Assembly: GCA_963845755.1 (NCBI GenBank)
Contig: CAWJTV010000012.1
Coordinates: 96,001-160,000 of the forward strand
Direction: 5' to 3'
Origin: an uncultured Planctomycetota bacterium
GTDB taxonomy: Bacteria > Planctomycetota > Planctomycetia > Isosphaerales > Isosphaeraceae
Length of the DNA stretch: 64,000 nucleotides
Shown: one piece after another, positions 28,962 through 47,899 of the stretch
Layout of the letters: the number at the start of each line of letters is the position of its first letter
Numbering within the stretch: the stretch's first letter is position 1
Position numbers and translations under genes: made by a program
The notes under the pieces: model-generated
Seen by the model: the letters and a program-made list of their open reading frames with translations, nothing else
Database searches by the model: none
Told to the model about the DNA's origin: nothing

Positions 28962-29094
28962 GACGAGCCTTCTGCGTCGGCGGATTCGAAATCTCAGATT
29001 CCGGATACGTGATTCCGGGTCTCCCAACTCTTCATATTACAAAAGTCGGAGGCGGACCTCAACTGGCTTGTTGAGAGTCTTCTCGGGGCGTCGC

Positions 29095-30228
29095 TCATCG
29101 GAACGAGATCCGATCGTTGCAGAAACGTTTCAGCTTATCCTGGTCGATCTCGACGCCCAGACCGGGGCGGGACGGGATCGTCAGAAGCCCCTGATCGTCG
29201 AGGTGGAAGGGTTCGGCGGTGAGCTCATCGATATAAGGGCTTGGGGTCAGGTACTCGACGTAGCGGGCAACGGGGATGGCGGCGGAGAGCTGGAGATCCG
29301 CCGCAAGGCCGACGACGGTGTTCCAGCCGTGGGGGACGACCTGGACGTTATGGTCGTATGCCAGCCAGGCGATGCGCCGGGATTCGCTCAGCCCGCCGTT
29401 CTTGGTGCAATCGGGCTGGAGAATGTCGACGGCGCGGTTTTCGATCCAGGGCCGAAACGATTGCCGGCGCGTCAGAACCTCTCCGCCGGCGATCGGCACG
29501 GGAGAGACCCGCGTCAAGGCGATGTATCCGTCGAGGTCATCCGGCGGTAGCGGCTCCTCGAACCATGTGATTCCGAAGTCGGCGAGCATCTCCGCCGTAT
29601 TGCGAGCCCAGTTCGTCCCGTGTGGCCAGAACTGCTCGCTGCCGCCGGCGTCGACCATCAACTCGACGGAGTCGCCGACGGCCCGGCGGGCCGTCCTCAC
29701 TAGCAGTTCGTCGAACGCGCGGTCACGCCTCCCGAACGGCCGCCAGCCGACCTTGATCGAGCGGAATCCTCGCGATACGACCTCGGAGAGCCTCCGCGCA
29801 AGCGGCTCCGGCTCGTCGAAGAGGATGGAGGCGTAAGGGCGGATTGTCCGCCGATAATCGCCCCCGAGGAGTCGCGAGACAGGCTGACCGCAGGCTTTTC
29901 CCATCAGGTCCCAGAGCGCGATGTCGATTCCACTGATCGCATGCTCGACCGATCCCCCTCGCCCTTGCCAGAAGGCCGCCTGCCGTAACGACTCCGAGAC
30001 CCGCTCCGGTTCGACGGCCGATTGTCCTCTCAGGAGCGGCCAGATCAGCTCCACGGCCCCGGCGACCAGGCGGCCCGAGGTGAAACAGCTCCCGAAACCT
30101 TCGAGGCCCTCGTCCGTCCTCAGGATGAGGAGGGTGTGCAGGTTCTCCTGCAACTCGAGTCCCTCCGGCCAGCCTCCATCCACGGCCGCCCCGCTCAATG
30201 GGCAGACCTCAATCGATCGGATGCTCAT
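29095..30228 (-). CDS. Mandelate racemase/muconate lactonizing enzyme (enolase superfamily)
   Basis: 'ISGIDIALWDLMGK', 'LMVDAG', 'WFEEP', 'AGGE', 'LQPD' and 'PHGW' motifs. Confidence 0.92.
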   Translation of the reverse strand: MSIRSIEVCPLSGAAVDGGWPEGLELQENLHTLLILRTDEGLEGFGSCFTSGRLVAGAVELIWPLLRGQSAVEPERVSESLRQAAFWQGRGGSVEHAISGIDIALWDLMGKACGQPVSRLLGGDYRRTIRPYASILFDEPEPLARRLSEVVSRGFRSIKVGWRPFGRRDRAFDELLVRTARRAVGDSVELMVDAGGSEQFWPHGTNWARNTAEMLADFGITWFEEPLPPDDLDGYIALTRVSPVPIAGGEVLTRRQSFRPWIENRAVDILQPDCTKNGGLSESRRIAWLAYDHNVQVVPHGWNTVVGLAADLQLSAAIPVARYVEYLTPSPYIDELTAEPFHLDDQGLLTIPSRPGLGVEIDQDKLKRFCNDRISFR

Positions 30229-30478
30229 CGCGGACTCCCCGTTGCGCCTCGGGCCGTTGATTCCCGGAACAACTCGAACGAAGCCTTCCATCCGAGAATC
30301 ATACCGACTCCGGGTGGGATCTCCAGAAGGACTAGAGGTCGCGTGACGCGTCTCTAACGCCGGGCGCGCCGTTGCTACCGTGCCGCACATCCATTAACCT
30401 GGTATCGTGTGGGAGCCGCCCGATTCTCGTCAGAAGTCCTGCCACGGCCGGTAATATCGGGGTCCGGTCAAGGAGAGA

Positions 30479-30507
30479 TTGACGCAAAACGGCTTATGGT
30501 TTAGAGT
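30479..30507 (+). promoter_or_regulatory. sigma70-type promoter of tRNA-Ser
   Basis: TTGACG (30479-84), 17-bp spacer, TAGAGT (30502-07), 11 bp before the tRNA. Confidence 0.6.
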
Positions 30508-30518
30508 TAGATAGTCTC

Positions 30519-30605
30519 GGAGAGGTGACCGAGAGGCCGAAGGTGCGGCACTGGAAATGCCGTGTGGTGTCACAGCCACCGTGGGTTCGAATCCCACCCT
30601 CTCCG
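30519..30605 (+). tRNA. tRNA-Ser (anticodon GGA); CCA not encoded
   Basis: Acceptor GGAGAGG/CCTCTCC, anticodon arm CGGCA-CTGGAAA-TGCCG, long variable arm, T-arm GTGGG-TTCGAAT-CCCAC, discriminator G. Confidence 0.97.
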
Positions 30606-30623
30606 CTTGTTAGTGATTAGAAT

Positions 30624-30669
30624 GCCGGGTGTTAAGTCGCGATCCTCGCGGCTGCCGCCCGGCTTTTTT
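30624..30669 (+). terminator. Rho-independent terminator downstream of the tRNA
   Basis: GCCGGG...CCCGGC stem with inner AGTCGCGA/TCGCGGCT pairing, followed by T6. Confidence 0.65.
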
Positions 30670-30670
30670 C

Positions 30671-30763
30671 CTGGCTTAATCGCCCTGGCTTAATCCGCTG
30701 GCTTAAAGCGGGTCGGTGGAAGGTAGGCCAGGACGAACCCGCTGGGCGGCACCGTTGGCTTAA
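30671..30763 (+). repeat. Four direct copies of YTGGCTTAA (30671, 30685, 30698, 30755)
   Basis: Read directly from the sequence; clustered just 3' of the tRNA. Confidence 0.75.
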
Positions 30764-31078
30764 GTATCAAGCCTTGGAAGTGGGCGGCGGATCGCGCTAT
30801 CGCCGATACCCCATGTCAAAGCGCTGTGCTGGTTCAGCGTGAAATGGAGAAACCGGGGTCGGGAGACAAGGTAGAGTGCACATCGGAACAGGCGGCGTCG
30901 ATTTGCCGCCTTGGTGCCAATCCCGAAAGGGAAAGACAGGGCGGAATCGTGCCGCCCCCCCTTCGGTCTTGGCCCCCGGGTCGGCGCTCGGGTCGTGTCG
31001 CCACGGAGCCCTATCCTCCGCCCGGGTCACTCTCCAGCATAGGGTCGTCGAACGATGCGGACAACGGCTCGGCGGCGA

Positions 31079-32047
31079 TCAGCTCGCCGGCCGACTCGCT
31101 TCGCGCGCGGCTCGCCTCCGTTCACGCGCGGCCTCCAGCTTGCGGTCGCGCTCGGCGAAGATCGCCCGATCGCGACCGGCCAGCTTGTCCGCCGGCGCGA
31201 TGTAGCCGATCGCGCTGTGCAATCGGACCTCGTTGTAATGCGCCACGAACTCCCTGACGAGGCGCCGCGCGTCCTCCAGGCTCAACGGCACCTTGACCCG
31301 GATGCATTCGCCCTTGAGCGTCTTGTGCCACCTCTCGATCTTCCCGTTGCTCTGGGGATAATAGGGTGATGTCCTCACGTGAGTCATCCCGCAGATCCTG
31401 ATGAATTCCTTGAAGTCCTTGGCGATGAACTGCGGGCCGTTGTCGGAGATGATCCGGGGCCGCTCGCCGGGGAAGCGCTCGCGGGCCCGCTGGATGATCG
31501 TCTCCACCTCGGCCTCGGTCATGCTCTCGCGGATCTCCCAGTGGACGATGAACCGGCTGCAGCCGTCGAGGAGGCCGCAGAGGTAGAAGGACGTGCCGGC
31601 GACGTTGATGTACGAGATATCGACGTGCCAGTGCTCGTGGGGCCGCAGCGGCTGATGGAAGCCCTTGCCCTTGAGCGATGGTTTGCTGCTATGTGCCCTC
31701 ATCAATCCGGCGTCGCGGAGGACGCGGTAGACGCTCGACGGGCTGACGGCGACCAGGTCGGCGTCGAGCATCATGAAGGCGAGCCGCCGGTAGCCCTCCA
31801 GCGGATGGTCGGCATGGAATTCGAGGATGGCCGCCTTCTCCCAGGGCTCGAGCCACCAGTCGCGGGGCACGGTGGCGTTGTGCTCGTTGGCCGAGCCGTA
31901 GCGCGCCTTCCAGTCGTGGAACTTGCTGGCGGCGATGCCCAGCCAGCCGATGAGTCGCCGCATCCGCATCTCGGTGCGGCCGGCCCAGTGGCGGACGAAG
32001 TCGACGATCGAGTCGCGGGTGTCGTGGGGGACCCAGGCCCCGGTCAG
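31079..32047 (-). CDS. IS3 transposase OrfB (rve DDE), probably via -1 programmed frameshift
   Basis: 'WHVDISY', 'ISDNGPQF', 'PQSNGKIERWH' and 'YNEVRLHSAIGY' motifs. Confidence 0.92.
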   Translation of the reverse strand: MTGAWVPHDTRDSIVDFVRHWAGRTEMRMRRLIGWLGIAASKFHDWKARYGSANEHNATVPRDWWLEPWEKAAILEFHADHPLEGYRRLAFMMLDADLVAVSPSSVYRVLRDAGLMRAHSSKPSLKGKGFHQPLRPHEHWHVDISYINVAGTSFYLCGLLDGCSRFIVHWEIRESMTEAEVETIIQRARERFPGERPRIISDNGPQFIAKDFKEFIRICGMTHVRTSPYYPQSNGKIERWHKTLKGECIRVKVPLSLEDARRLVREFVAHYNEVRLHSAIGYIAPADKLAGRDRAIFAERDRKLEAARERRRAAREASRPAS

Positions 32048-32352
32048 AGTTCCCCAATCTCTTTTTTTAGTTTGATATGTTCCTCCATCAATTCGGCGAC
32101 GACCTCGTTCTTGCGCTGGAGCTTATCGCGCAGGGCGGCGATTGTCCGCTGGAGGTGGCCGTCGGTGGTGGCATTCTTGCGCTCGAAGGCGGCAGGGCCG
32201 TTCTCGAAGAACTGCTTCTGCCAGACGTAGAACAGCGTGGGCGAGAGTTGGTGCTCGTCGCAGAGGTCAGAGACGGGGACGTGGTCGATCAGGTGCCGCC
32301 GCAGGATGGCGACCTTCCCGACGGGCGTATAGTTCTTGCGAGGCTTTCGCAT
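32044..32352 (-). CDS. IS3 transposase OrfA (HTH)
   Basis: HTH 'VSDLCDEHQLSPTLFYVWQKQF' and leucine zipper; ends at slippery A7G (about 32061-32068). Confidence 0.88.
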   Translation of the reverse strand: MRKPRKNYTPVGKVAILRRHLIDHVPVSDLCDEHQLSPTLFYVWQKQFFENGPAAFERKNATTDGHLQRTIAALRDKLQRKNEVVAELMEEHIKLKKEIGEL

Positions 32353-32422
32353 GGCGAGACTCCTGCCGAGTTATCATATAACTCGGGTGGGGCGTCTCTC
32401 CATTTCCGTCTGAAGCAAGACA

Positions 32423-32775
32423 TCGCCGCCTGGCGCCTGGCCCGAAGGGTTTTCCCCGACGAAGGTGAAGACCACCAGTGCGTTCACGTGATCGTGGCCG
32501 CGTGGGCATGGATCGCCGGTTCCGCAATGGCCCTGGGGTCCAGCGGGGCCCTTACGGGTATCGCGTTGATGGCCACGGTCGCCATCTCAGTGGGTCTGGT
32601 CATCTACAAGGGTCGCCGAGTCGGAAAGGACAAAACGGACGGGACGCCCCCCGGCGATCGGGCCGACCTCGCCTGCCAGATCGTGAAATACCTGTTCTTA
32701 GCTTACTTTGTAGTTTTTGTACTAAAGAAAACAGACGTTTGGTTTACCACCGAGCAGAGGTGGTCATGCGGATAG
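32423..32775 (+). pseudogene. 3' remnant of a small membrane protein gene truncated by IS3
   Basis: Hydrophobic segments begin at the IS end with no start codon. Confidence 0.4.
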
Positions 32776-32939
32776 GAGCTACGCGGGGGTGTCAGCTCCT
32801 CGACCTCAGCGTGGCCGAGTCGCCGCCGGGAATAGAAAAGGTGACCTATAAATCAACCTTTACAGGAAATGGGTCAGCACGAAGAGTTCTTCGACCTGTC
32901 AGGAGCCAGCCCTCTTTCCCTTGCCTTCGATGCCTCTAG

Positions 32940-34988
32940 CCCATGTTTGGGGTGGCGCATCGTAAGTCCTTGCGGCGCAAGGGTCGGATTTTCCATTAGT
33001 CACTACATGACCGTATTCTCCCCCTCCAGCGGCGCCGGAGGGCGTTGGTCCACCAGCTTCAGCGCCTTCAGCACCCTCCGGGCATCGGGACAGCCGCCGG
33101 CCAGCCCTCGCCGCTGCGGTTGGCCTTCCAGACGGAACGTCACCAGCCTCACGGTCGCCAATGCTTGCATGGCCCGCGACGGCGACAGATCCAACCCCGC
33201 CTCGTTGAGCCGGCGGCCCAGCAGGCGTTGAACCAACAACGCCAACGCCGCCACAAAAATATGAGCCTTGATTCGTATCTCGATCTGGTGATAGATCGGC
33301 CGCAGCGCCAGCACATCCTTGAGTTGGCGGAACCCGCTCTCGACCTCGGTCAATTCCTTGTACATCGCCACCGCGTCCCGCACGCTCAGCCCTTTCTCAC
33401 TCGTCATGATCACATATTTTCCCTCGATCTTCTTCTCACGTCCCAGCCGCGCCTCGCTCTCGGTGATCTCCAGCGTCCCATCCTTGAGTTTCCAATCGAA
33501 GTAGCGATAACCGTGATATTTCTGCATAATCCGCTCGACGGCCGCCCCGATCTTCTCGGGCCGCTTCAAGTTCCCCGCGGCGACGCGCCCCTTGAGCTTC
33601 TCCAGGCGCTGGCCGGCTCGCTCCATCGCCTGTTCCCGCTTCGCCTGCTCGTAGCCGCGGCGCTCGTCCGAGTCGATGACGATGACGCGCAGGTCGGGAT
33701 CTCCGGAGGCGACTTCCTGGGCACGGGTGCGCCGTGGGTTGGTCTTCCGTTCCTGGGTATTGATGCCCCCGGGGCAACGGACCCACTGGGTGTCGTCAAC
33801 GGCGTCGAGCCAACCGTCGATCTGGGCGTTGCGCCGCCGCTTGACGCCAACCAGGAACCCATGCTCGTCTTTCGTAATCGCCTCGATGTTCTCATCGGTG
33901 ACCATACCCCGATCACCGACGAAGACGAGCCGGCCGAAGGCGAACCGCTGGCGCAGGTCGCGGATGACGTCTTGGACCGTGGAATGGTCGATGCAGTTGC
34001 CCGCCCAGACATGATGAGCGATCGGCCAGCCGGCGACCATCACCACGCCGACGACCACCTGGACGTTCTGCGGCTTGCCATCGCGGCTGTAGCCGTGCTT
34101 GGCGAAGTCGCGCGGGCCGGCGCCCTCGAAATAGGTGCTGGTCATATCGTAGAGGACCAGGTCGGGCTTGAAGCTGAAGAGATCGCGAAGGCGGTGGTAG
34201 AGCGCCACTTCGATGCGATCTTTGGCCGCGTGGAGCTGGTCGAGGGTGCGGTACCAGGCGTCGAGCTGGCGGGGATGGACGCGGACCCGTCGGCGTTGGT
34301 GCCAATGAGGAACGAAGCGACGGCCCTTGCGGTCGCAGACGAAATCGGTCTCGAGCCAGCCGGCGAGCCCATGCTCACTGGCCGGGGCGATGAGCCGGTT
34401 GGCGACGAGCACGAAGGCGCGGTCGGCGAAGGGGACGCCCTTGGCGAGCCCGAGGTATTGGTCGAGGATCGCCCAGAGGCCGAGTTGGTCGAACAGGGCC
34501 CGAACGACGAGGATCGGCCCCCAGGTAGAGGCATCGATCACGTGAGGGTCGGCGGGATCGCCGGCGTCGCACTGGGCGTCGCCGTCGAGGAGCCGGCGGA
34601 GCTTGGGGAGCAGCTCGACGAGGAGATCCTTGCGCCCGAGGTCGGCGACGACACGTTGCTTGACCTTGCCGCCGTCGCGGTAAGCTTCGACGACGCGGAC
34701 GTATTCGTGGACGGTGCCGTTCTGGGAGCGGACTTTGACGGTTCTTGGATACATGACTGGTTGCTGGCATCGCTGGCGAGGGATGTCCGGAGATGCACCG
34801 CAATCATTATCACGACAGATTCTGGCGAAATCAAGGTAATTAATCGGAATTCAATTGGAAGTTCCCGCCTAGAGTTGTCACTACACTTTTGGGGCCGGCG
34901 AGACCACAACCCAAGCGAAAAGCCTGGGAAAATAGCGGTTTTTGCGCACAGGACCAGGCGGCCCCGGCTCCGTCACCCCAAACATAGG
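32940..34988 (-). mobile_element. IS1634-family insertion sequence
   Basis: IRs CCCATGTTTGGGGTGGCG / CGTCACCCCAAACATAGG; CTAG on both sides (32936-39 and 34989-92). Confidence 0.88.
33003..34754 (-). CDS. IS1634-family DDE transposase
   Basis: 'YVRVVEAYRDGGKVKQRVVADLGR', 'LYDMTSTYFEG', 'GYSRDGKP', 'VGDRGM' and 'VESGFRQLK...RPIYH' motifs. Confidence 0.92.
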   Translation of the reverse strand: MYPRTVKVRSQNGTVHEYVRVVEAYRDGGKVKQRVVADLGRKDLLVELLPKLRRLLDGDAQCDAGDPADPHVIDASTWGPILVVRALFDQLGLWAILDQYLGLAKGVPFADRAFVLVANRLIAPASEHGLAGWLETDFVCDRKGRRFVPHWHQRRRVRVHPRQLDAWYRTLDQLHAAKDRIEVALYHRLRDLFSFKPDLVLYDMTSTYFEGAGPRDFAKHGYSRDGKPQNVQVVVGVVMVAGWPIAHHVWAGNCIDHSTVQDVIRDLRQRFAFGRLVFVGDRGMVTDENIEAITKDEHGFLVGVKRRRNAQIDGWLDAVDDTQWVRCPGGINTQERKTNPRRTRAQEVASGDPDLRVIVIDSDERRGYEQAKREQAMERAGQRLEKLKGRVAAGNLKRPEKIGAAVERIMQKYHGYRYFDWKLKDGTLEITESEARLGREKKIEGKYVIMTSEKGLSVRDAVAMYKELTEVESGFRQLKDVLALRPIYHQIEIRIKAHIFVAALALLVQRLLGRRLNEAGLDLSPSRAMQALATVRLVTFRLEGQPQRRGLAGGCPDARRVLKALKLVDQRPPAPLEGENTVM

Positions 34989-34991
34989 CTA

Positions 34992-36213
34992 GTGCTTTGT
35001 CACAGCTAAAAATTGGGGTTGGGGAAACCTCCGCGACCGTGGATGATACGGGGAACAAGGAGGCCCCCATGAACAAGAAGTACATTGTCCGGCTTACGGC
35101 TGAGGAACGGGACGAGTTGGCGGCCGTGATCAAGAAGTTGAAGGGAACCAGCGAGAAGGTTCGACGCGCCCAGATCCTGTTCAAGGCCGATGCGGACGGT
35201 CCGAACTGGACCGATCGTCGCATCGCCGAGGCGTTCGGATGCCGAACGCAGACCGTCGAGAACATTCGTCAGCGTCTCGTGGAGTACGGCTTTCGAGAGG
35301 CATTGGACCGCAGCAGGCGCCAGATGCCGCCGGTCGAGAAGCGACTCAACGGCGAACAGGAGGCGAAGATCATCGCCACACGGCTCGGGTCACCGCCCCC
35401 GGGTTATGCCAACTGGACGCTGCGGCTCTTAGCTCGAAAGGTGGTGGAACTGGGGATCGTCGAAACCGTCAGTTACGAGACGGTGCGGCGGACTCTGAAA
35501 AAAACGGGATGACCAACCGCAAGATCGAGTACTGGGTCATCCCGCCCGAGGCTGACGGTGAGTTCGTGGCCCACATGGAAGAGGTGCTGGAGACCTACGC
35601 CAAGCCTTACGACTCGATGCGGCCGATCCTGTCCATGGACGAACAGCCGGTGCAATTGCTGAAGGAGTCCCGCGTGCCGATCCCTGCCACGCGCCGACAC
35701 GCCAAGCGCGTGAACTACGAATACGAGCGTGCCGGGACGGCGAACATCTTTATGTTCACCGAGCCGCTGGCGGGCTGGCGCGAGGTGGCCGTCCGGGATA
35801 CCAAGACCAAGGTCGAACTGGGCGATCGAGATGGCCGCGCTGTTGGAGGGCCGTTATGCCAGTGCCGAGCGAGTGATCGTGGTATGCGACAACTTGAACA
35901 CGCACACCAAGGGTGCCTTCTACGAAGTCTTTGCACCGCCCCGTGCTCGCCAGTTGGTCCGCCGCATCGAGTTCTGCTACACCCCCAAGCACGGCAGTTG
36001 GCTGAACATCGCCGAGAACGAGCTCAGCTCGTTGACGCGGCAGTGTATAGCCGGCCGCCGCTTCGGTGATGCCCAGGCGCTGCGAGTGGAGACCACCGCT
36101 TGGTCAACCGACGTCAACAGCACCCAGCGCGGAGTGGATTGGCAGATGAAGATCGACGATGCCCGCTCCAAATTGAAGTCGATCTACCCCAAAATTAAGC
36201 TGTGACAGAGCAC
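34992..36213 (+). mobile_element. IS630-family insertion sequence
   Basis: IRs GTGCTTTGTCACAGCT / AGCTGTGACAGAGCAC with TA duplication (34990-91 and 36214-15). Confidence 0.9.
35069..36205 (+). CDS. IS630 transposase; probable programmed shift at CTGAAAAAAAC (about 35495-35505) plus an extra indel near 35815
   Basis: HTH OrfA 'WTLRLLA...SYETVRRTLKK'; DDE motifs 'SMDEQP', 'VCDNLNTH', 'PKHGSWLNIAE'. Confidence 0.88.
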
Positions 36214-36219
36214 TAGCCC

Positions 36220-38448
36220 TCAGCGCACGTCCCAGACGATGGCGCTGCCCCGGTGGAATCCGGTGAAGAGCTTGGTGCCGTCGGGTGAGAACGCCAGCAC
36301 GTAGGCCCGGTTGTCAACAGGTTCGAGCGTGAGGTACTGCCCACCAGTCGCGATGTCATAGAGGCGGATCGTGTCCTGGCCGAGATCGTCGCCGTACCGG
36401 ATGTCCGAGGTCGCCAGGGTGCGACCGCCGGGGGCGAGCCCAGGTGGCAGCCGTGCCGGTGCGGATGCCGGAACTTCCGGCGCATCAGGCCCGACTCGAC
36501 GTCCCACACGTAGACCCACTCCATCTGGCATGAGACCAGCGTGCGGCCGTCGGCGCTGAACGTGGCCTCCCACATGTCGGGCTTGCGGGGCTGCCCGGCC
36601 TTCTGCTCCTCCGGAGTCCGCCATTCGGCCAGGAATCGGCGCTGCTCGTGGCCGGTGAGAGCACTAAAGCGGATCACGTCGCCACCCCTCAGGGCCGCCT
36701 GGAACCAGGGCGTGTTGCCCGCGAATTGCATTCGGGCCACGGGAGGGAACCCGACCCGCTGATCCCGGGGGGGGATGGACCAACGGGTCCGCCCCGTCCC
36801 GACCTCGATCCCCAGGAAATGCGTATCGCCGTAGGCACCGTCCGAGGTGGCGATGACGACGATCCGCCCATCGGGCGCCATCGCCGCCGATCGGATCGCT
36901 TTCTGAGGGACCTCGCGCACCGTCCGGCCGCTGTCGGCCTCGTAGAATACGACGATCCCATGGTCCTCAGTCACCGGGTCATCGCGAATGCCGGCCGCGA
37001 CCACGAGCTTGCCGTCGCGCGAGAAGCACACAGACGCTGCGCGGGGGTTCCGCCCGATCGGGCTGACGACCGGTGCCAGGGGCTTATGCCAGATCAGCTT
37101 GCCGGTCGCGCCGTCCCAGACGCGCACGAGGCCGTCGAACTGGCCGACCGCAAGCCGGTCGCCCGATGGCGACCAGGCCGCCGAGGCGACATAGCCTACG
37201 GGCGTACTCTCGTCGTGGTGCAGCCGTCGGCCGGTCGAGACCTCGAAGAGGCTGATCGCGTTGGCGATCGGCATGGCGACGAGGCGGCCATCGGGCGAGA
37301 ACGCCGGCCGCCCGCCCGATGAGCCGGGTAGTTCAATCGTCCGCTCGGTCCAGCCGGTCGCAGCGTCGAGGATGCGAAGCCGGTTGTGGTCGGCCACCGC
37401 CACGCGCCGGCCGTCACGCGACAGCGCTCCGTAGCCGAAGCCGTAGTCCTCGTCGCCGTGGTAATCGGCGATGCGCTCACCGCTCGCGACGTCCCAGAAT
37501 CGGACCTCGCTCATCGCCACGTGCGAGTGCCGGCCCCGGAGCTTCGTCTCCTCGCGTCGCTTCGCGGTCTGCCCGGCCGACATGATCCGACGCCCATCGG
37601 GCGTCACCGCCACGCAGTTCAGCCGGGGATTGATCGACTCGTCCAGAGGCGTGCCGTGCGCCAGGGGATCTTGCGCAGGAGCCGGCCATCGCCGATCTGC
37701 CAGATGAAGAGTGTGGCATCGCCGGAGGTCCCCGCGACGAGCCGGGTCCCGTCGGGCGTGAACGCCAGACATCCGATGCCTTGCCGGCCCATGACGGTCC
37801 CCACGACCTTCGGTGCTTCGAGCTGGCCCGCCGCCGGGCGCGGTCGCGTCGAGAGGTCTCGAACGACTTCCGCAGGCTTCGCCACTCGCCGGAGGCGGAC
37901 GACCTCATCGCCCCCGATGGCGATCAGGCTGCCATCGGGAGAGAATGCGACCTCGTTGACCTCGTCTTCGCGCAGCCTCTCGCGGAACAAGAGCCGGTTG
38001 CCCGGCAGGTCCATAGCGCGACTTGGCCGTCGTATTCCCCCCAGAGCAGTTTCGTGCCGTCCGGTGAGAGCGCGAGCGACCCGACACCGCCCTCCCGATT
38101 CCCCGGCGCGACGATCTGCTTGACCTCCTGGCCGGTCCGCACGTCGAAGATGACGACCCGTGGACTCGCGGCGACGCCGCCCGCGACGGCGACCGAACGG
38201 CCGTCGGGCGAGAAGGCGAACACAGGGTGGAGGTCCTGCGCCCGCAGGTCGTCCGTGCCGATTCGCAGCAGCGCTCGCGGCGGTAGGGCTCGTTTGGCGG
38301 CGTCCGTCCGGGGCGGATCGCTCCGCTCTGCGGAGGCCGCACCGGGCGCGATTTGCGCCTCGGACTGCACACCGGGTGGCCCTAGGGCGAGAACCGTCAC
38401 CGCGCCCGTGATAGTCCGGATTGCAAGCCGCGCACGGACAAGCTGCAT
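36220..38448 (-). CDS. Secreted WD40-repeat protein, multiple indels
   Basis: Signal peptide, 'LPPRALLRIGT' and repeated 'AFSPDG...WD' units across four or five overlapping ORFs. Confidence 0.75.
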
Positions 38449-38716
38449 GGCCTATTTCTCATGGAACCCTAAAAGGTTTGATCTCCGGATCACCCGTTCT
38501 ACGTCCAGGCATCGTTCCGCGCCACCTGACCGGCTCAACTATGGATCAGGCTTTGCGCTGAAACGACGGTTGGACTCGGCGCCGCAAGACGAAATCGGTC
38601 CACACGAGGTGGAAAGTCGGGTGGGCTCTACCTACCGGCGGGAAGCCTTCTTCCCGCATCGTCCCGCACCCGACCGTCCGCGCCAACGATGAATCGGGCA
38701 ATGCGCCCGAAGGGAC

Positions 38717-39226
38717 TCATTTCGGCTCCAGCGGGTCGGGCTCGACGGTAAGCCAGGGGCGGGATGCGGCGGCCATATACTTCCGCCCGAGTGCGGCGTG
38801 GTATTCCGCCAGCTTTCGGTGAGGCTCCGTCACCCGTTGGGCGTAATTGGCCTGGATCTCGCGTCTCTTGTCCGCCATCGAACGCACTCTCGCTTGGGCT
38901 TCTCTGAAACGATCGTGCCCCTCGGGTTGAATCGGTTTCCCCTCAGGGAAACCGAACCATCGTTCGATCCCCCTGTCAAGTTCGTCGCTCGTCTCCGGAG
39001 GGGACGCCGGCACTTGGTTCGCCAATCCGTTGCCAGCGGCGAGAGTCGCGGCCGATGCAACCGAGCGGCGGTAGAATGCTTCCGCCTCGGCGTGCCATGT
39101 CGCCCTCGCGAGGCAACTCTCACGCTTCCGCTTGAGTCGTCTCGCCTCGCGATAGCCGCCGAACAGCAGCGCCACGACCGCCACCGCGATCATCCACCGC
39201 CCTGTCGTCATTCGGGGCAGTCGCAT
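38717..39226 (-). CDS. Hypothetical N-anchored helical protein (paralog of 39288-39552)
   Basis: 'MRLPRMTTGRWMIAVAVVALL' N-terminus; 'YMAAASRPWLTVEPDP' C-terminus. Confidence 0.75.
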   Translation of the reverse strand: MRLPRMTTGRWMIAVAVVALLFGGYREARRLKRKRESCLARATWHAEAEAFYRRSVASAATLAAGNGLANQVPASPPETSDELDRGIERWFGFPEGKPIQPEGHDRFREAQARVRSMADKRREIQANYAQRVTEPHRKLAEYHAALGRKYMAAASRPWLTVEPDPLEPK

Positions 39227-39287
39227 GGCTCACGGCCCTCTCGTTCACACCCCACCAGCCTTTGCGGCTCACTCGTCCCCCGTCGCT

Positions 39288-39552
39288 TCACTCCGAATCC
39301 GGCCCGACCGCCAACCACGGCCGGGCCGCCCGCCCGTTGGTACATCCTCGCAAGCCTTTCGTTGTGCTCTGCAGCTCTCAGGTCCCCCGCGGGGCCTGCC
39401 GTGCCACGCAGATGATCGGCCAAGTTCTCATGGACCGCGGCCAGCCGCATGAATTGGGCCGCCCGCCGCAACATCACGAAGGCCCCGAGCAGCAGCGAGA
39501 CGGTTAGGACCGCCACCATCCACCGCCGCGTCGTCATCCGGGGTAGTCGCAT
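39288..39552 (-). CDS. Hypothetical N-anchored protein; indel near 39330
   Basis: 'MRLPRMTTRRWMVAVLTVSLL'; corrected tail 'YQRAAARPWLAVGPDSE*' matches its neighbour. Confidence 0.65.
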
Positions 39553-39577
39553 CGCTGAAGCCCTCATCTCACCCCAC

Positions 39578-39812
39578 TCACTCCCCCAGCCGCCCCGAGC
39601 CCTTCGCCTGGTCGAGCGCATTGCGGCGTTCGGCTTCCGCCTGCGCCGCCGCCACGGCTCGATTCGCCTCCGCCGCTGCCCGCAGGCGCGTACGCCGCGG
39701 CCTGCCGTTCCGCCGCCAGCCTCTTCGTTCGCTCGGCCACCAGCGCCGCGATGATGACAAGGAGCATCAGAGTACGGATGCGGACGCGCCAGCGGGGACG
39801 TTGCTGTTTCAT
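39578..39812 (-). CDS. Small N-anchored coiled-coil protein; one indel
   Basis: 'RWRVRIRTLMLLVIIAALV' followed by an Ala/Arg/Glu-rich helix. Confidence 0.55.
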
Positions 39813-39939
39813 GGTCGGGATCTCGACGCCGTTTGCCTGAAAGGTCTCAGCTCTGGATCACCCGTTCCGGCTCACCGCCATAGTCCCGCGCCCGACTGTT
39901 CGCGCGAGCTATAAATGGGACGTTCCGATCACGCGCTCA

Positions 39940-40382
39940 TCAAATGGCCGGCCCATCGCGCCAGACGCCTTTGTCGTCCTCTTGCTTGGTCTTCCCCGTC
40001 TGCTTCTGAGAGCAGCCCAAGGCGAGAGTGCCAAAGCAGCCGATCACTCGCATCACCCAGCCGGCGAAGACGCCTGTCATCATCCCGACGACCGCCCCGA
40101 AGCTCAGGAACAAGATCGAGAAAAGTAAGCTCAGGAACAATTCACCGAACGTGTTCGGATAGCGAGGCGGCGTTGGGGAACGAGATGTTCAGGCGGTTAT
40201 CATGGAGATCGAGTGTCACCAGACGATGCAATGGTCGTTGATTCTTCGGGATTCCTCGAACTGAAAGACCGAGCGGGCCGCCGAAAGTATGCCGGCAGCG
40301 ATCTCCGAGCGCAACGGAACCCTGCCAGAGGTCACCACGCCAGACAATTACGATGGGATGAGTCTCATCGAGCATACGCATG
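39940..40382 (-). CDS. Putative small membrane protein, frameshifted
   Basis: Hydrophobic C-terminal ORF 39940-40140; lies between two repeats; frame unclear. Confidence 0.3.
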
Positions 40383-40491
40383 GATCGTACCTGATACGCC
40401 GTGGCAAGGGTCGATACTGGATCACCCGTTACGCGTCCCGCCATTGTCCCGCGCCCGCCTGTCCGGGCCAACTATGAATCAGACTTTGCGC

Positions 40492-40896
40492 TCACAGCGT
40501 TGGGGAGAGTCTCGGGGGACGACCCGCCAGTGCGTCCTCATACGCCTCTCGGATGATAGGGGTGACCGGGTAAAGAGGCCCGTGAACCATCGACAACTGC
40601 TCTCGGATCTCATTCGGGCTTACCACACCGGAGGCAATCGACCCGCACATCACTTCGTAGGCAATCGCATAGAGTTCCGCCTCCGGTAAGACTTCCGACA
40701 TATCTTTCAGGAACAGCGTCCTGCCTACGGCCTCGAATTCCTTCCGCTCCCGCTCTATTTTCTGCCGTTCCTCCTCGGAGAGGAGGTGGTCTATGGTCGT
40801 CTTGGGAAAGAGCTTCTCGAAGGCATCGTCATCCAGCCAGACGAGACGACCGCCAGAGGGGGCGTCGTTTGGCCCTGGGGACTCGGGTGTCAACAT
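40492..40896 (-). CDS. Hypothetical protein
   Basis: RBS GAGGGGAG before ATG at 40896; coding-like composition; stop overlaps a repeat core. Confidence 0.65.
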   Translation of the reverse strand: MLTPESPGPNDAPSGGRLVWLDDDAFEKLFPKTTIDHLLSEEERQKIERERKEFEAVGRTLFLKDMSEVLPEAELYAIAYEVMCGSIASGVVSPNEIREQLSMVHGPLYPVTPIIREAYEDALAGRPPRLSPTL

Positions 40897-40972
40897 GGGC
40901 CTCCCCTCGATCAAAGCGCTTGGCGCCCCGGACATCACCCGGAGCATCTGATCTATAGATCAGACCTTACGC

Positions 40973-41712
40973 TCAATCCTCGCATTCGTACCGCCACTCG
41001 TCGGACAATTTCAGATCCAAGTACAGGTTGTAGAGCGGACCGCTGGCACGCCCAGTGGGCGCGCGCCGGGGGAGGCGCCGACTCGGACGAACCCAGAGCG
41101 ACCCGATGGGTCCCGGTCGATGATCAGGCCGACATTGCCACTGGAGGGATCGACTGCCGTGGCGACTACGCGGAACAACCCGGCCCATTCCGGGCTGGTG
41201 ATCCCCTGCCCGGCGGCAACACGATTGGCTAGGCGATCCAAAGCCCGCGCGGAGGCGAGGAATGCCAGGCGTAGCGGCCAAGGGGTGAGGAGCATCGTGA
41301 GCGGAAGGATGCCCGATGCGACAACCAACGGCCAAGCCCAGAACGTGGCGCGTTGTGATCTCGTTTCTCGCCGCGTCGCTGTGGTCGCCCAGGCGGCACC
41401 GGCACTGAAGACCAGCGGAAAGGCCAAGAGCCAGACGAGGAGCATCAGGAAGACGCCGCCCATACAGAGTCGGTGAATGCACAGGCCGGCGGTCGCGATG
41501 TTGCTCAAGGCGGCCACGAGCCCGAAACAGGCGGCCGAGACCCGTCGGAAGCCATGGAAGATCCACCACAGTACGCCGATCAGGGCGAGGTAAGCCAGTC
41601 CGAATGCGACGAACAGGCCGATTGGTGAACGCGCGGCGACGAGGAGTCCAGCCGCCGCCGCGACCACGATCATGAGATTCCAGATCGTGAACCGAACGCG
41701 GGGCCATCGCAT
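40973..41712 (-). CDS. Hypothetical multi-TM membrane protein; indel near 41045
   Basis: 'MRWPRVRFTIWNLMIVVA' N-terminus and several TM helices; corrected tail 'GPLYNLYLDLKLSDEWRYECED*' stops at 40973. Confidence 0.7.
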
Positions 41713-41822
41713 GGCTCACTCCTGCCACGTCTCATCACTAATCGCCCGTTCCACGTCCCGGCCTCGTCACGCGACCGTCTGACCGGGTCAACTATAATTC
41801 AGACTTGTCACTGGAAGCTCGC

Positions 41823-42359
41823 TCAGCGGAGAAGGGCAAAGCTGCGATACAGGGCGACAACTAGCACGATCCAAGCGAGCCCGATTACGAATCCGAGCCA
41901 GTCGATCCAGGAACGCTCAAATCGCCACCGCCCTCCCAGAATACTCGCCGACCAGGCACCGATCACAGCGAAGCCAGGACTTTGGTAGAAGTTGTGTGAG
42001 AACGGCGTTATCACGAAGTCAGGTCGCGCCCCCCCGACGATCTGCAAAACCATTAAGGTCGTTTCCAGAGCGATGGCGCATGACATGGCGACGATCGCTG
42101 AGGTGCCCGGATAGTCTGCCAGAAGCCTTACAGGATGTCGGGGAGTTCGAAGCCGTAAGACGAGGCAGGCGACGGTGCAAGCGGCAAGCATGGGGGGGAC
42201 ATAGAGGAGAGAATCTCTCACGTATCCGAATCGGTCCGAGAGCGAAACGAACCTCGGGGGAGCGGGAAGGAAGCTCGTCAAGCTCGTTCGGCATAGCGCC
42301 AAGCCAACCGCAATCGCCGCCACTAACAAGACTGCGTCGAGGAGGTTGAATCTTCGCAT
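41823..42359 (-). CDS. Hypothetical membrane protein
   Basis: 'MRRFNLLDAVLLVAAIAVGL', 'LRLRTPR' and 'GRWRFERSWIDWLG' segments; about five TM helices. Confidence 0.75.
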   Translation of the reverse strand: MRRFNLLDAVLLVAAIAVGLALCRTSLTSFLPAPPRFVSLSDRFGYVRDSLLYVPPMLAACTVACLVLRLRTPRHPVRLLADYPGTSAIVAMSCAIALETTLMVLQIVGGARPDFVITPFSHNFYQSPGFAVIGAWSASILGGRWRFERSWIDWLGFVIGLAWIVLVVALYRSFALLR

Positions 42360-42547
42360 GGCGGTCCGATCTACGACGGCCTCTTGGCAACTATCGCCTC
42401 TAGTCCACCCGTTCCAGCTCCGGCCATCGTCCCGCGCCCACCTGTCCGGGTCAACCATGACCCAGGCTTTACACTTTGGACTATGGCTCTTCAACCCCAC
42501 AATCCAGGAGCGGTCGCCAGGCAGATCGATGGGCAGAGCACGGCGAT

Positions 42548-43278
42548 TCAGCGGACGCGGCCGGACTTTCCGAGGCGTTCGAGGGAGTCTCTGGCCACCT
42601 CGGTAGGCTGGGCATCGGGATGGCCGGTGGCCATGTCCCTGAGGATGGCGATCGCCTCCGGGGTGCCGATGTGCTCCAGCAGTGCGATGGTGCGCACGAT
42701 TCGGGTCCACTTCTTCTTGGGGTTGCGCCGATTCGGTTGAGGTCCTCGATCTTGTGGTCGGCCCTCAAGAAACTCTTAAGGGTGCCGAAGTAGAACATGC
42801 CGTTCCGGCTCCTCCCGAAATTGACCTCCTGATCCCCGAACCAGCCGGCCTCCTTCCCGCTCATCACCTCGACCATCCGTTTCCTCGCCGGGCTCTCCTT
42901 GTAGCGATCCATCAACGTCTCGAGGTCCATCGCCAGCCGCGGATCAAAGTATTCGAGTTCCTCGAAGGCCGGCCTCCAGACTTTCTCGTTCTCGTTCCCC
43001 AGCTTTAGTAGCAGCGCCCGTACTGCTCCGGGCGTGATCTTCAGCGGCTTCATCTTCGTCTTGAGGAACGCGACCGCCTTCTCGCGCCGGTCAGCCAGGC
43101 TGAGCAGGGCGCGTATGGCGTCGGTCTCACCCTTCTCCAGATCCGCCCACCAGACATCCGTCGTGCCTGGGCTGTCCCTCGGGCTCATGCCCGGATTGGC
43201 CGCCGGTGGGCGATGCTCAACAGGCTGGATCGTGAACGCAAGCAGCGCTAGGAACAACAATGGTAGGAGTCGCATCAT
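42548..43278 (-). CDS. Secreted helical (HEAT-like) hypothetical protein; indel near 42722
   Basis: Signal peptide; corrected tail 'RTIALLEHIGTPEAIAILRDMATG...ERLGKSGRVR*'. Confidence 0.65.
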
Positions 43279-43470
43279 CTGGTTCCTTGTACGCCTCATC
43301 GTCTACTTGGGGCGCGGCCGCCAGATGGCAAGTCTGAGTTCTAAATGAGGCTTTACACCGGGGATTCGACGTAAGTCCCGAAACGAAGCCTCGGATTTCG
43401 TTGAGCCGCGACGGTCGAACGCTGCCAGGTTTCGCGGATACGAGCCTGGCCCGACCGTGCGGACCGACGG

Positions 43471-46400
43471 TCATCGGCGAGGCCCTGGTTCTTCGACGGT
43501 TCGCGCGACGGAAGGATCCCAGAGCTTGATCGTGGTGTCGCGACTGGCAGTGAAGAGGATTCGGCCGTCGGCCGAGAAGGCGACCCAGTCAATCGCATCG
43601 TGATGACCGCGGAAGGTGGCTCGCAGCTTTCCGGAGGGCGTGTCCCAGAGGCGGAGCACCTCGTCCGCTCCGCCCGCGGCAAGGGTCTTGCCGTCGGGGG
43701 AGAAGGCCAGGTAGAGGGCCGGCCCGGACAGCGATTTCAGCGTGACGAGGGGCGACCTTGCCATGACGTCCCAGAGCATGACAGTCGCGGCCTCGGTCGC
43801 CGCGGCCAGAGTCTCGACCATCGGGGGTGAATGCCAGTCGCGTGACCCGACCATCGGGCACGGGCAGGACCGCGAGCCGTCGACCGGTGGCGAGGTCCCA
43901 GAGCCGGACCTCGCCCGAGCCGGACGTCGTGATGGCACCGCTCCCGACCTTGCTGCCACCGGTGGCAAGGGTCTTGCCGTCGGTGCTGAGCACCACCATG
44001 TTCATCCCGCCGGGATGCTGGAAATTGGCCCTCGCCTTGCCGGTCTGCACGTCCCAGAGCGTCACCAGGCCCGCCGCGTTGGCCCCGACCAGGGTCTTGT
44101 CATCGGCCGAGAACTGGACGAGATCCACGCCCCCCTGTCGCCCCGACGGAACGACCGTGGCCTTGAACGTGCGGGTGTCCCAAAGCTTCACGACCCCGGC
44201 GCGACTGGTGGTCGCCAGGGTCTTGCCGTCGTGGCTGAATTCGAGCGCGACGACCTCGCCGTTGTGCCCGGAGAGCATCGCACGCTCGTGGCCATCGTCG
44301 AGGCTCCAGACCTTCGCCTCGACGGTCGGCGGGGCGTCGGGTTGGCGCTGGGGAGCGGGCTTGCTCTGCGCGGTGGGCTTGGCCACGGGAGCCGGCCGGG
44401 CCTGCGCAGCGGGCTTGGCCGCGGGAGCCGGCTGGGGGCGGGCACCAGCTTCGAGGCCTTGAGCTTTGGGTGCTCAGGGCCTTCACCTTTAGCCGCCGGG
44501 CCAGCCGGGCGGGCGGGAGCGGCGGGCGGCTTGACGGCGGCCCGATTGGCGCGGATGCCGGCCGCCAGCAAGCGGCCGTCCGGTGAGATTCCCATGCAAC
44601 GGACGCGCGACGTCCTCACTGCCGAGCGTCAATCGCACGCGGCCAGTTCCGATGTCCCAGACCTTGATCGTTCCGTCCGCGCCGCGCGTGGCCAGTGTCT
44701 TGCCGTTGTCGAGGACCGCCAGGCTCCGCACGATATCGGCGTGACCCCGAAGGGTGGCTCGCTCCTGGCCCCGGGACGAAGCCGCCGTGCGGACCAAGGA
44801 CCGGCCTGCCGGCGACACGTCCCAGGCCTCGATCCGCCGTTCGCCGGCCGTGTACAGCGTCTTGCCGTCGGGGTCGAACGCCAGGCAAGAGACGCCTTCG
44901 CCCGCCGACGCGCCGGGCAAGGTGAGTGTCGCGGCGAGGCGGCCCGGGGCCACGTCCCAGAGCGATACGGTCGGGTCGCCATCGCATGACGAGGCGAGCC
45001 GCTTGCTGTCCGGCGCGAATGCGAGAGCCGTGATCGGCACGATGGGCCCGCGGAGCGTCGCGCGCTCGGTCCATGTGGCGACGTCCCAGAGCCGGACGGT
45101 GCGATCCGCCCCGCTGCTGGCCAGGATCTTGCCGTCGGGGGAGAAGACGACGGACAGGGTCGCCCGGGTGTGACCTTTCAAGTTGGTGAAGGGCACGCCG
45201 GCAGCCACGTCCCAGACGGTCACGATGCCGTCGGCGCCCGCGGTGGCAATCGTCGAACCGTCGGGGGAGACGGAAATCGATCGGGCCACGCTCCTCGATT
45301 TCGATTTGAAGGGCCGGAGCGGTTGCTTCGCGTCCAGTCCAAACAAGATAGGCGGCCCGCCGGCCATCGCCAGCGACCGGCCGTCGGGGGTGAAGGCAAT
45401 GACCCGGGCGCCGGACGGGTTGACCGGCAGTTGGCCCATCTCGTGCAGGGTGGCGGTATCCCAGAGCTTGAGCAAATTCGAACCCGAGCCGACGGGGAGC
45501 ATGGCCAGGATCTTGCCGTTGGGAGAGAGGGCAAGCTGAACGTCCTGGGCTGCGAGCAGGATGGGATCGCCCCGCTCCCGGCCCAGTTTCGGGTCCCAGA
45601 GCTGAACGTCGCCATTGGTCGTCGCTGATGCGAGCACCTTGCCATCGCGCGAGAGCACCAGGGATCGGACTTTCGCCTCCACGCCCGCGAACGGCCGAGG
45701 CGCGAGCTGGGCGGCCACATCCCAAAGCTTGAGCTGGCCGTCGCCCCCGCCGGTGGCGAGCGTCTGACCATCGCCGGCGATGGCCATCGCCGCGAGCGGT
45801 GTCGGGTGCGCCTCGGTGTGGAGGGCCTGAGCGTGGCCGTCGGCCGCATCCCATCGGCGGAGCGAGCCGTCGGCACCGCCGGTGAACAGCGACTGGCCGT
45901 CGGGCAGGTATGCAACCGCACCGACCGATCCCGAGCGAGACCGCAGCGACGCCCGACCCGACGCCTTGGCGAGGTCCCAGAGCCGCGTCGTGCCATCGCG
46001 GCTCGTCGAAGCGAGGGTCTTGCCGTCGGGTGCGAACGCCAACGCGTCGATCGCGTCACGATGCCCGTCGAGAGAACGGCGAAGCGAGCCTCTAGGCAGG
46101 TCCCACACCTTCACTGTCCAATCGACCGATCCTGTGGCGAGCGTCCGGCCATCGGCGGCGAACGCCACGCAGGTGATCCCGCTGGTGTGCCGGGCCAGGG
46201 TCGTTCGCTCGGCCGCCTTGGCGACGTCCCAGATGATCGCGGCGGCATCCCGACTCCCCGATGCGAGGCTCTTGCCGTCGGGCGCGAACGACAGGCAGGT
46301 GATCGCACCCTCGTGACCCTTCAGCACGGCCCGCTCACGGCCCGCGGCCAGGTCCCAGAGAGTGACGACTCGACCGTCACCGCCGAAGGCCATGGTGACG

Positions 46401-47715
46401 CCGTCTGGGCTGATGGCCAGGGCGCGGACGGTTCCGGAGGGATCGCGGAGCCGACGTCGGATCTCGTGCGTCGTGATGTCCCAGAACGTCACGATGGGAC
46501 TCTCGGTCGCGGTCGCCACCGTCTTGCCATCGGGCGAGAACGCCAGGGCCAACACCGGCTCGGGGTGCATCATGATCCGGTCTTGCACGGGACCGGGCGG
46601 GCGGAGGCCCAGCCAGACGGCCCGCGTCGTCCCGGACGACGACGTCCCAGAGTCGGATCGAACGATCGGCACCGCACGATGGCGAGGGTCTTGCCGTCGG
46701 GCGCGAACGCCAGCGCCCGGACCGCGCCCAGGTGGCCCTTCCGATGAGCCCCGATGACCTGTCGATTCGCCATGTTCACGAACGCGATCGAACCGGGAGA
46801 CGGCACGGTCGCCCGCGGGTCGGACAGGGCCACGGCCATGATTCCGCCGTCGGGCGCGAACGCGATCGCGAGCACGTCGTTTCCGACCGGCAGCGACTGC
46901 GGCATGGGTTGTTGCGGTTGCGGAGCTTGAGGCCTTTCTGAGGTTCCCGAGGCGGTTTCGGTTTGTGCTCGCCGACCGGCCAGAACCGCAACGTCTTGTC
47001 CGCGCCTCCCGAGACGACGATCTTGCCATCGGGGGCGAAGGCCACGCACCAAGCCGGTTCATTCTGCTTGCCCAGGAGCGTCAACGGCCGATCGACGACC
47101 ACGTCCCAGAGCCACACCGTCCCGTCGAGGCTCGCCGAGGCGAGGGCCTTGCCGTCGGGCGCGAACGCCAGGCCCTGGACGCTCGCCTCGTGCCCCTCGA
47201 GCGTGCGCAAGGCGCCGGTTCGGCGACATCCCAGAGCCGGATCGTGGTGTCCGGGCTGCCGGATGCAACGGTCTTGCCATCAGGCGCGAACGCCAGGGCG
47301 GTCACGGCACCCGAGTGACCCGAGAGCGTGCCCAGCCCCGCGCCGTCGACGGTCTTCCAGAGTCGAACCGTCCGATCCTCGCCCGCGGTGGCGATCGTTG
47401 TCCCGTCGGACGAGATTGCGACGCGGAGAACCTTGCCCTCATGCCCGCGCAGGTCGGCCCGCACGGTCCGGGTTGCGACGTCCCAGATCTTGGCCAGCCC
47501 GTCGGAGCCAGCCGTTGATCAGCGTCTTGCCGTCGGGTGTGAAGACCGAGCCCGAGGACGTCGCCGACGTGCCCCTTGGGATTGACCGGGTCGAGAGGCA
47601 GCTCATCGGCCCTCATCGGTCCGGCGAGGACCGGCAGGATCAGCAGCGCCGATGCCAGTCGCCAAAGCGTCTTTGAGGCGCAACGCATTCGTCTTGACGA
47701 GCTGTCAAGTCGCAT
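43471..47715 (-). CDS. Very large secreted WD40-repeat protein, broken by many indels
   Basis: More than 20 'GH...V..LAFAPDGKTLAS.S.D..V.LWD' units continuing across at least seven overlapping minus-strand ORFs; signal peptide. Confidence 0.8.
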
Positions 47716-47899
47716 CCTTCGAGCCTCCCTCGGTCAATCGATTGGTCGTTGTCTGCTCAGCGAGCACGGTTTCACGGTCTTGGCGAGATGAAGAGCGACG
47801 TTTGTAGCGGAAACACGAGGCGCGATGCGAGCACCCGGCTGTGTCTTGCAACGGCAGCCCGGTGCTCGCGGAGCGACTCGACTTCGGCTTCACGATCAC

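Follow-up and report, generated by a model that had tools for sequence, protein, structure and literature searches.

A promoter-like intergenic module heads unrelated genes in mosaic arrays of uncultured Isosphaeraceae

In the genome of an uncultured planctomycete of the family Isosphaeraceae (GenBank assembly GCA_963845755.1; 14.27 Mb in 49 contigs) we analyzed a stretch of 64,000 nucleotides (nt) of contig CAWJTV010000012.1 (C12:96001-160000 by our own contig label), hereafter the window. It contains a run of minus-strand genes, among them genes for a WD40 protein, small anchored proteins and membrane proteins, separated by copies of one intergenic repeat (Table 1). The same repeat, hereafter the module, stands before dozens of accessory genes in a genome. 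These genes are unrelated, many code for N-terminally anchored envelope proteins, and they occur singly or in co-oriented arrays.

Copies were detected with a sequence-only covariance model. The starting profile consisted of the window copies and was iterated over the whole genome; the resulting model, made from 28 copies of this genome, was scanned over the whole window with filters off. Six strong matches were found, all on the minus strand (E 2.6e-25 to 3.4e-14), and an independent repeat search recovered the same copies as families D7, D8, D9 and D11 between 38487 and 42478. An earlier sequence-only reading had listed nine copies, all intergenic and in one orientation, and had seen no long copy elsewhere in the window. 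Six of the nine are confirmed, with orientation and intergenic position as described, and the scan agrees that no further long copy exists in the window. The copy listed at 40909 is a partial remnant, which at that site reads as the palindrome TGATC-TATA-GATCA. The remaining two are unsupported: at 32845 only model positions 12-32 match, at chance level (E 6.2), and 43338 gave no match up to E 10. One of the six strong copies is truncated, and the next copy lies about 90 nt downstream of it.

The layout of repeat, gene and repeat with unrelated cargo, as the sequence-only reading had proposed, is borne out. One copy heads three small open reading frames (ORFs) in succession, the second and third of which have no module copy of their own; a unit may therefore contain more than one gene. 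The nine small cargo ORFs of the window matched no Pfam or NCBIfam family, and Pfam, NCBIfam, a word-index protein search and an Atlas look-up yielded no function for the small proteins. The trio's ORF of 169 amino acids (aa) falls in a family of 117 clusters for which no Pfam domain is recorded and whose named members are all but two "hypothetical protein". An 84-nt direct repeat (D13, 75% identity; 39154-39237 and 39480-39563) spans the 5' ends of a neighboring pair of small paralogues (MRLPRMTT.RWM...), neither of which has a module of its own.

Table 1. Features of the array and its surroundings in the window, followed by tandem copies at other loci. Offsets are ORF starts in nt after the end of the model; labels such as G000, C5 and L040 are our own.
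Feature	Position	Strand	Remarks
tRNA-Ser(GGA)	30519..30606	+	8 kb from the array, three insertion sequence (IS) elements between
IS3-type rve transposase gene	31079-31969
IS4-like DDE_Tnp_1 element	32936-34992		22-nt inverted repeats at 32936/34971
IS630-like element	34987-36218		33-nt inverted repeats at 34987/36186
WD40 beta-propeller gene	36213..38448	-	Cargo; signal-like N-terminus; split in two ORFs
Module copy, model 8-93	38479..38563	-	E 2.1e-20; heads WD40 gene, offset +27
Truncated copy, model 4-69	38650..38715	-	E 3.4e-14; 5' subrepeat and core, without 3' subrepeat
Trio of small N-terminally anchored ORFs	38717..39812	-	Cargo; 82, 114 and 169 aa
Module copy, model 8-94	39846..39933	-	E 8.3e-18; heads the trio, offset +31
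79-aa ORF and 66-aa hydrophobic ORF	39940..40381	-	Cargo; 79-aa ORF doubtful (low G+C at third codon positions)
Module copy, model 5-93	40411..40499	-	E 2.6e-25; best copy of the genome; heads the 79-aa and 66-aa ORFs, offset +26
134-aa soluble-looking ORF	40492..40896	-	Cargo; no full repeat upstream; no family, no Atlas match
Remnant, 5' subrepeat only, model 8-34	40951..40977	-	E 0.42; past the stop of the 233-aa ORF
233-aa multi-pass membrane ORF	41011..41712	-	Cargo; begins MRWPRVRFTIWNLM
Module copy, model 6-94	41731..41818	-	E 5.8e-19; heads 233-aa membrane-protein ORF, offset +16
178-aa ORF	41823..42359	-	Cargo; hydrophobic N-terminus; no Pfam or NCBIfam match
Module copy, model 8-93	42394..42479	-	E 1.2e-21; heads 178-aa membrane-protein ORF, offset +31
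272-aa ORF	42481..43299	-	Upstream of first copy; lacks its own repeat
Tandem overlapping copies	G000 C5:521796-521935
Tandem overlapping copies	G000 C15:120801-120905
Tandem overlapping copies	L040 5815-5956
Tandem overlapping copies	L055 5482-5640
Tandem overlapping copies	L159 12277-12361

Module anatomy and the genes behind it

Read on the sense strand of the downstream gene, the module measures about 75-90 nt. It opens with an A/T-richer subrepeat of 20 nt (model positions 13-32, consensus GTGTAAAGGGTGATCCATAG), followed by a -35-like TTGGCG (33-38), a strongly conserved, G-rich spacer of 17 nt (39-55), a -10-like GACGAT (56-61) and a second subrepeat (70-89, consensus GTGGAACGGGTGATCCAGAG) that matches the first at 16 of 20 positions. 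Column frequencies were counted over 199 copies. TTG stands at positions 33-35 in 167 of these, A at -11 with T at -7 in 169, and all of them together across the 17-nt spacer in 142; the exact hexamers are less frequent (GACGAT 115/199, TTGGCG 99/199). The transfer RNA (tRNA) genes of this genome carry TTGAC(A/G/C), 16-18 nt and TA(C/T)NAT directly upstream, and their -10 boxes include TACGAT three times and GACAAT once; this puts the module hexamers one mismatch away from the tRNA genes' house promoter. Module and tRNA promoters, the latter of sigma-70 type, are alike in TTGnCn, a distance of about 17 nt, nAnnAT, A at -11 and T at -7. The module alone has G at -12, a spacer conserved at 85-97% and flanking subrepeats of 20 nt.

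No structure was found in the module. RNAalifold gave no consensus pair over 28 copies, with neither hairpin nor dyad, and the sequence-only reading was right that a long hairpin is lacking. An Rfam scan of 28000-48000 in E-value mode returned tRNA only. The sense strand is G-rich (G 0.38 vs. C 0.23), and a G-quadruplex was considered and dropped (loose G3N1-12 pattern in 41/199 copies vs. 13 in shuffles). Promoters of the extracytoplasmic function (ECF) and sigma-54 types, judged by eye, misfit in spacing or key bases; a planctomycete ECF promoter of unknown type is possible.

Retention of the 5' subrepeat is similar in copies inside arrays (0.64, n = 111) and in copies that come first or stand alone (0.60, n = 88; p = 0.24). 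The subrepeat thus belongs to the module itself rather than being the tail end of the cassette before it. Copy-to-copy identity hardly changes with distance between genomes (0.675 within a genome, 0.669 within a genus, 0.666 between genera), which indicates that each copy is under selection or drawn from a common pool, as opposed to decay following duplication. The consensus of the 5' subrepeat (e.g. 40475-40499, minus strand) holds TAA, TGA and TAG, one per frame and 7 nt apart, so that no frame entering from upstream stays open as far as the -35 box; of these triplets, TAA is kept least well. CGGGAC-type words recur in the core at intervals of about 11 nt, a spacing of the kind used by OmpR-type regulators, and one module copy (E 6e-10) heads an OmpR-type response-regulator gene (L067 4427-5125).

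The position before genes is strict. Behind five window copies an ORF starts on the minus strand 16-31 nt past the last model position. In the first six genomes, 81/97 strong copies have the start of an ORF of 60 aa or more between -12 and +100 of their 3' end, as compared to 33/97 in a mirror test. Where copies within one locus lie in opposite orientation, each faces its own gene. An N-terminal anchor, strictly defined as basic residues followed by 16 hydrophobic ones, follows 45/199 copies, and the controls gave 0/199 (reverse) and 7/199 (same strand, 300 nt upstream); many anchors read MRxPRVRFTVRRMM-AVAVVA. The cargo is unrelated and mostly without known family. At a Pfam threshold of E <= 0.001, no family was assigned to 56 of 77 downstream proteins, and the assigned families were LRR (6), beta-propeller (3), CarboxypepD_reg (2), DUF1559 (2) and, once each, TPR, RraB, DUF4159, an OmpR-type regulator and, weakly, DUF6188. 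NCBIfam showed no immunity family among the 33 cargo proteins scanned.

Distribution and mosaic arrays

The sequence-only reading had proposed a scan of genome and family with a profile-type model and had set the array beside a tRNA-Ser gene. Run with our model, the scan gave 28 copies in this genome (E < 1e-9) on 11 contigs, in clusters of two to six and as singles, some of them before lone genes; 22 of the strong copies lie outside the window, on 10 other contigs. A special tie to the tRNA-Ser locus is not borne out by this spread. Among 41 relatives, the seven genomes matched all belonged to the same family (6/24 in that family vs. 0/16 in others). A family-wide search (E <= 1e-8) found the module in 30 of 121 genomes and 13 of 53 genera, and all 30 genomes measure 7-16.5 Mb. 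Two genomes carry 56 and 60 copies, the latter being the maximum seen. An exact-pattern scan with one genome per species matched almost exclusively metagenome-assembled genomes of uncultured Isosphaeraceae and Planctomycetota; the other matches were scattered, chance-like singles. Full-text searching of the literature found no paper describing such a motif in Isosphaeraceae and no planctomycete promoter maps.

The longest array seen has 18 copies on a single strand over 16.8 kb, with ORF-filled spacings of 0.4-3.5 kb save for one tandem pair 84 nt apart. Such spacing is not that of clustered regularly interspaced short palindromic repeats (CRISPR), which the sequence-only reading had likewise set aside. 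This largest array (L180, G069:C6:29000-41000) adjoins CRISPR-Cas genes (fragments of Cas1, Cas6 and Cmr3), a single case and maybe chance. ECF-type sigma-factor genes (Sigma70_r2 / r4_2) lie a few kb from two large arrays of another genome, G062 (L184 48-1067 and 11232-11729; L186 8749-9342); we claim no link, because such genes are very numerous in planctomycetes.

To compare neighborhoods, the 300-nt flanks of the 199 copies from 11 genomes were compared in all 19,701 pairs, and long homology was defined as at least 150 nt at 80% identity or more. Both flanks were shared in two pairs only, both between two congeners and at 90-98% identity. One flank was shared in 31 pairs upstream and in 106 pairs downstream, and at the level of long homology in 13 and 14, respectively. 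Only 2 of 29 long flank-sharing pairs thus kept both neighbors, and in the first six genomes alone both flanks were kept in 0 of 37 sharing pairs. In 92 of the 106 downstream-only pairs the shared stretch is short, mostly 50-95 nt, and codes for the common anchor MRxPRVRFTVRRMM...

The pieces that differ between genomes are units of the module and one to three genes. Compared between two congeners, the arrays prove to be mosaics in which shared units are mixed with unshared ones and the order differs. Two arrays of a single genome have one 560-nt unit in common at 98-99% identity; its homology begins inside the upstream copy and stops at ...ATAGTT of the downstream copy. High-scoring segment pairs (HSPs) between genomes end inside the module (±15 nt) in 65 of 182 cases vs. 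7.3 expected, an enrichment that is partly trivial, because the module fills the intergenic space in arrays. Gene content between the copies varies among relatives, with homology breaking at the repeat, and single copies before scattered genes exist alongside these breakpoints. Tandem "empty" copies 55-84 nt apart, with the order core, subrepeat, core, subrepeat and no gene between, occur at several loci (Table 1) and fit recombination or slippage between the two subrepeats.

Units also recur across genera. The unit of the 233-aa ORF is found at 82-83% identity in arrays of G012 and G015, genomes of two other genera, with other neighbors. Between G012 and this genome, median HSP identity is 86% next to the module (n = 4) and 75% elsewhere (n = 36), which, together with the HSP counts between genera given below, suggests exchange between lineages, but the samples are small and the "other" class itself comes from variable regions.

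Proposed function and its alternatives

We consider it probable that the module is a promoter and leader element which in addition provides portable homology for the shuffling of units. It would be a self-contained upstream element from which the following gene is driven and probably also regulated. RNA polymerase would start a few bases past GACGAT, and the second subrepeat would then be part of the 5' leader. A lineage-specific factor that co-regulates all units may bind to both subrepeats and to the conserved spacer. Homology-driven recombination between module copies, with crossovers mostly in the conserved core, would delete, duplicate or swap units, since each unit starts and ends in the same sequence, and mosaic arrays could arise without a dedicated integrase.

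The module marks out a sizeable and hitherto overlooked share of the flexible genome in uncultured soil Isosphaeraceae (genomes of 7-16 Mb), where hundreds of uncharacterized, often envelope-anchored proteins seem tied to a single control sequence. Should it prove to be a promoter, it would give planctomycete genetics a ready, conserved expression signal and a way into a lineage-specific regulon. Should units truly move at the module, cassette arrays could be built without an adjacent integrase. The motif model is a simple probe for such arrays in metagenomes.

Several observations weigh against this explanation. The spacer is conserved as strongly as the hexamers (CGGAC 91-97%), more than a plain promoter needs, and might point to a different sigma factor, to a regulator that binds there or to a role in recombination. 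A sigma-70 consensus scan of 36000-44000 (threshold 9/12) found no site, because the module hexamers reach at most 8/12, and the proposed start of transcription is read from sequence likeness. Imperfect repeats with a conserved core of about 35 nt, as these copies are, make poor substrates for RecA-type recombination. Between genera, HSPs of at least 90% identity are found next to the module in 8 of 26 cases and in 3 of 37 others, which fits active exchange. The clustering of breakpoints, lastly, may reflect a preferred crossover region and not just the best-conserved stretch.

Breakpoints were estimated by likelihood as the point at which identity in a long one-flank pair changes from the level of the flank to that of the background. 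Maximum-likelihood breakpoints were 0, 22, 24, 27, 29, 29, 35, 38, 43, 46, 47, 56 and 89 for upstream-sharing pairs, and 20, 28, 28, 31, 32, 32, 42, 42, 63, 69, 70, 70, 84 and 88 for downstream-sharing pairs. Around the -35 box, at model positions 20-47, lie 18 of the 27; the other nine fall outside, and no position fits every support interval. These data bear on an explanation that we regard as unlikely, namely a true site-specific cassette system in which a putative recombinase acting in trans exchanges units near ATAG|TTG and the module doubles as the cassette promoter. It would account for the breakpoint cluster, for the excess of homology ends in the module and for the scarcity of pairs that keep both neighbors. 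Unrelated cargo between the same ends, the unit-precise copy common to two arrays, the units 90-96% identical between genera and a spacer conserved beyond promoter needs would also follow from it. Against it, the module has no dyad or hairpin for recombinase arms, a third of the breakpoints reach outside the cluster, as far as position 89, and the enrichment of homology ends is partly trivial. Three insertions carrying module units into a syntenic congener backbone have their ends off the module and no duplicated target.

The search for a recombinase points the same way. The ORFs of 150 aa or more that flank five large arrays in two other genomes, 65 in all, include no recombinase or transposase. 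Phage_integrase matches, of which this genome has 43, show no constant adjacency to arrays; the nearest clear integrase-domain matches lie 6.5-20 kb away, and one weak match 1.3 kb. A tyrosine-recombinase (Phage_integrase) match is found at the window end (63750-64000; C12:159750-160277), 20 kb from the array. Of the cassette system suspected in the sequence-only reading, unit-wise mosaicism stands; the missing dyad, the missing adjacent recombinase, the lack of a single crossover point and the promoter anatomy speak against the rest. A broader proposal, tentative and rather unlikely in our view, is an integron-like cassette economy in giant-genome Isosphaeraceae, either lacking an integrase or served by one in trans. 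The promoter-bearing module of about 90 nt would there be expression signal and exchange junction in one, and self-expressed cassettes would move singly between arrays, genomes and genera.

We give little credence to an RNA element, by which arrays would be operons and the module a transcribed leader or intercistronic sequence acting after transcription, through processing, translation control or an RNA-binding protein on GGA/GGGAC words. The module does occupy the gap from stop to start in arrays, at a fixed short distance from the start codon and with a G-rich sense strand. However, it has neither conserved secondary structure nor an Rfam family, and its best-kept columns match the TTG of a -35 box and the A and T of a -10 box. 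The full module is also present in stand-alone copies without a co-oriented gene upstream, and these need a promoter of their own.

Doubtful to a still higher degree is that the module is merely the inherited 5' end, promoter and signal-anchor, of one expanding paralogous family, spread by duplication and without a role in shuffling. The short anchor-coding stretches in most downstream-only pairs would fit, and the small genes at 38717-39552 are such paralogues (D13). The cargo is nonetheless unrelated, many cargo proteins have no anchor, and module identity is constant across genome distance. Least probable of all is a mobile promoter resembling a miniature inverted-repeat transposable element (MITE) that inserts before genes: the module is short, intergenic, multi-copy and patchy among genera, as such an element would be, but it lacks terminal inverted repeats, shows no target duplication at the junctions read and keeps a strict sense and distance to gene starts, and no orthologous gene pair was found to differ by its clean presence or absence. 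MITEs and repetitive extragenic palindromic (REP) sequences as known classes were rejected on the same strict orientation relative to genes and on the lack of terminal inverted repeats or a palindromic body.

By kind, we place the module with promoter-bearing intergenic repeats and cassette-like arrays. In integrons, attC sites are imperfect inverted repeats (R''-L'' ... L'-R') that fold, stand 3' of promoterless cassettes near intI, attI and Pc, and recombine at G|TT. The Isosphaeraceae arrays resemble them in units of one or a few co-oriented genes, conserved junctions and differences between relatives at these junctions; unlike attC, the module has no dyad, is promoter-like and 5' of each gene, and has neither an adjacent integrase nor a single crossover point. 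The vsp/vlp/vsa genes of Mycoplasma put a conserved promoter, leader and N-terminal signal or anchor on divergent bodies, and one active promoter is switched by site-specific inversion. Conserved 5' regions on divergent bodies, clustered genes and recombination in the conserved 5' part are common to both. In contrast, each unit here has its own module, arrays are mostly co-oriented and the cargo is not one family. The dif/pdif sites are 28-bp XerC/XerD sites with dyad arms that alternate in orientation around modules; they were ruled out by the missing dyad and the mostly direct orientation of copies.

By analogy, the module would work most like the intergenic repeats of rAID-1 and like promoter-bearing intergenic repeats. 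The rAID-1 orphan-immunity arrays of Bacteroidales (Ross et al., bioRxiv 10.1101/471110) are each headed by a conserved XerD-family recombinase and carry cargo recognizable as immunity genes. Long co-oriented arrays, small, unrelated, horizontally shared genes, repetitive intergenic sequence and strain-variable content are found in both systems. In contrast to rAID-1, no recombinase flanks the Isosphaeraceae arrays, copies are spread over many loci including single genes, and in Pfam and NCBIfam the cargo has no immunity-family match except one RraB-like protein. In halovirus HF2 (PMC8707807), intergenic repeats tens of bases long are reported to act as promoters before successive genes. That example is a small viral genome with archaeal promoters, unlike a bacterial chromosome with 10-60 copies, conservation over 13 genera and shuffled units.

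Gene calls and flanking elements

Gene calls are our own crude ORF calls, and ORF lengths are approximate because the assembly probably has indel errors. Split or frame-overlapping genes were seen at 36213-38448, 40973-41728, 41823-43299 and 43353-47062, and include the 272-aa ORF, the two WD40 genes and the end of the 233-aa ORF. Metagenome contigs of three DNA runs covered 36200-44000 with short, low-depth pieces only, which showed 1-nt insertions at 36439, 37660 and 42727 and a 2-nt deletion at 41059; the split genes are probably assembly indels and not pseudogenes. Two long metagenome "joints" fall between WD40 repeats, with sides of 20-24 letters, and are uninformative on unit variants.

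The tRNA-Ser(GGA) gene noted in the sequence-only reading is present, without the adjacency to the array that had been described (Table 1). Synteny with the congener stops directly after an enolase-like gene (29095-30390), which precludes a unit-by-unit comparison of the tRNA-Ser locus with that genome. The array starts only after the IS630-like element, whose ORF (35239-36069) has a weak NCBIfam match below the cut-off. All three insertion sequences have many copies in related genomes.

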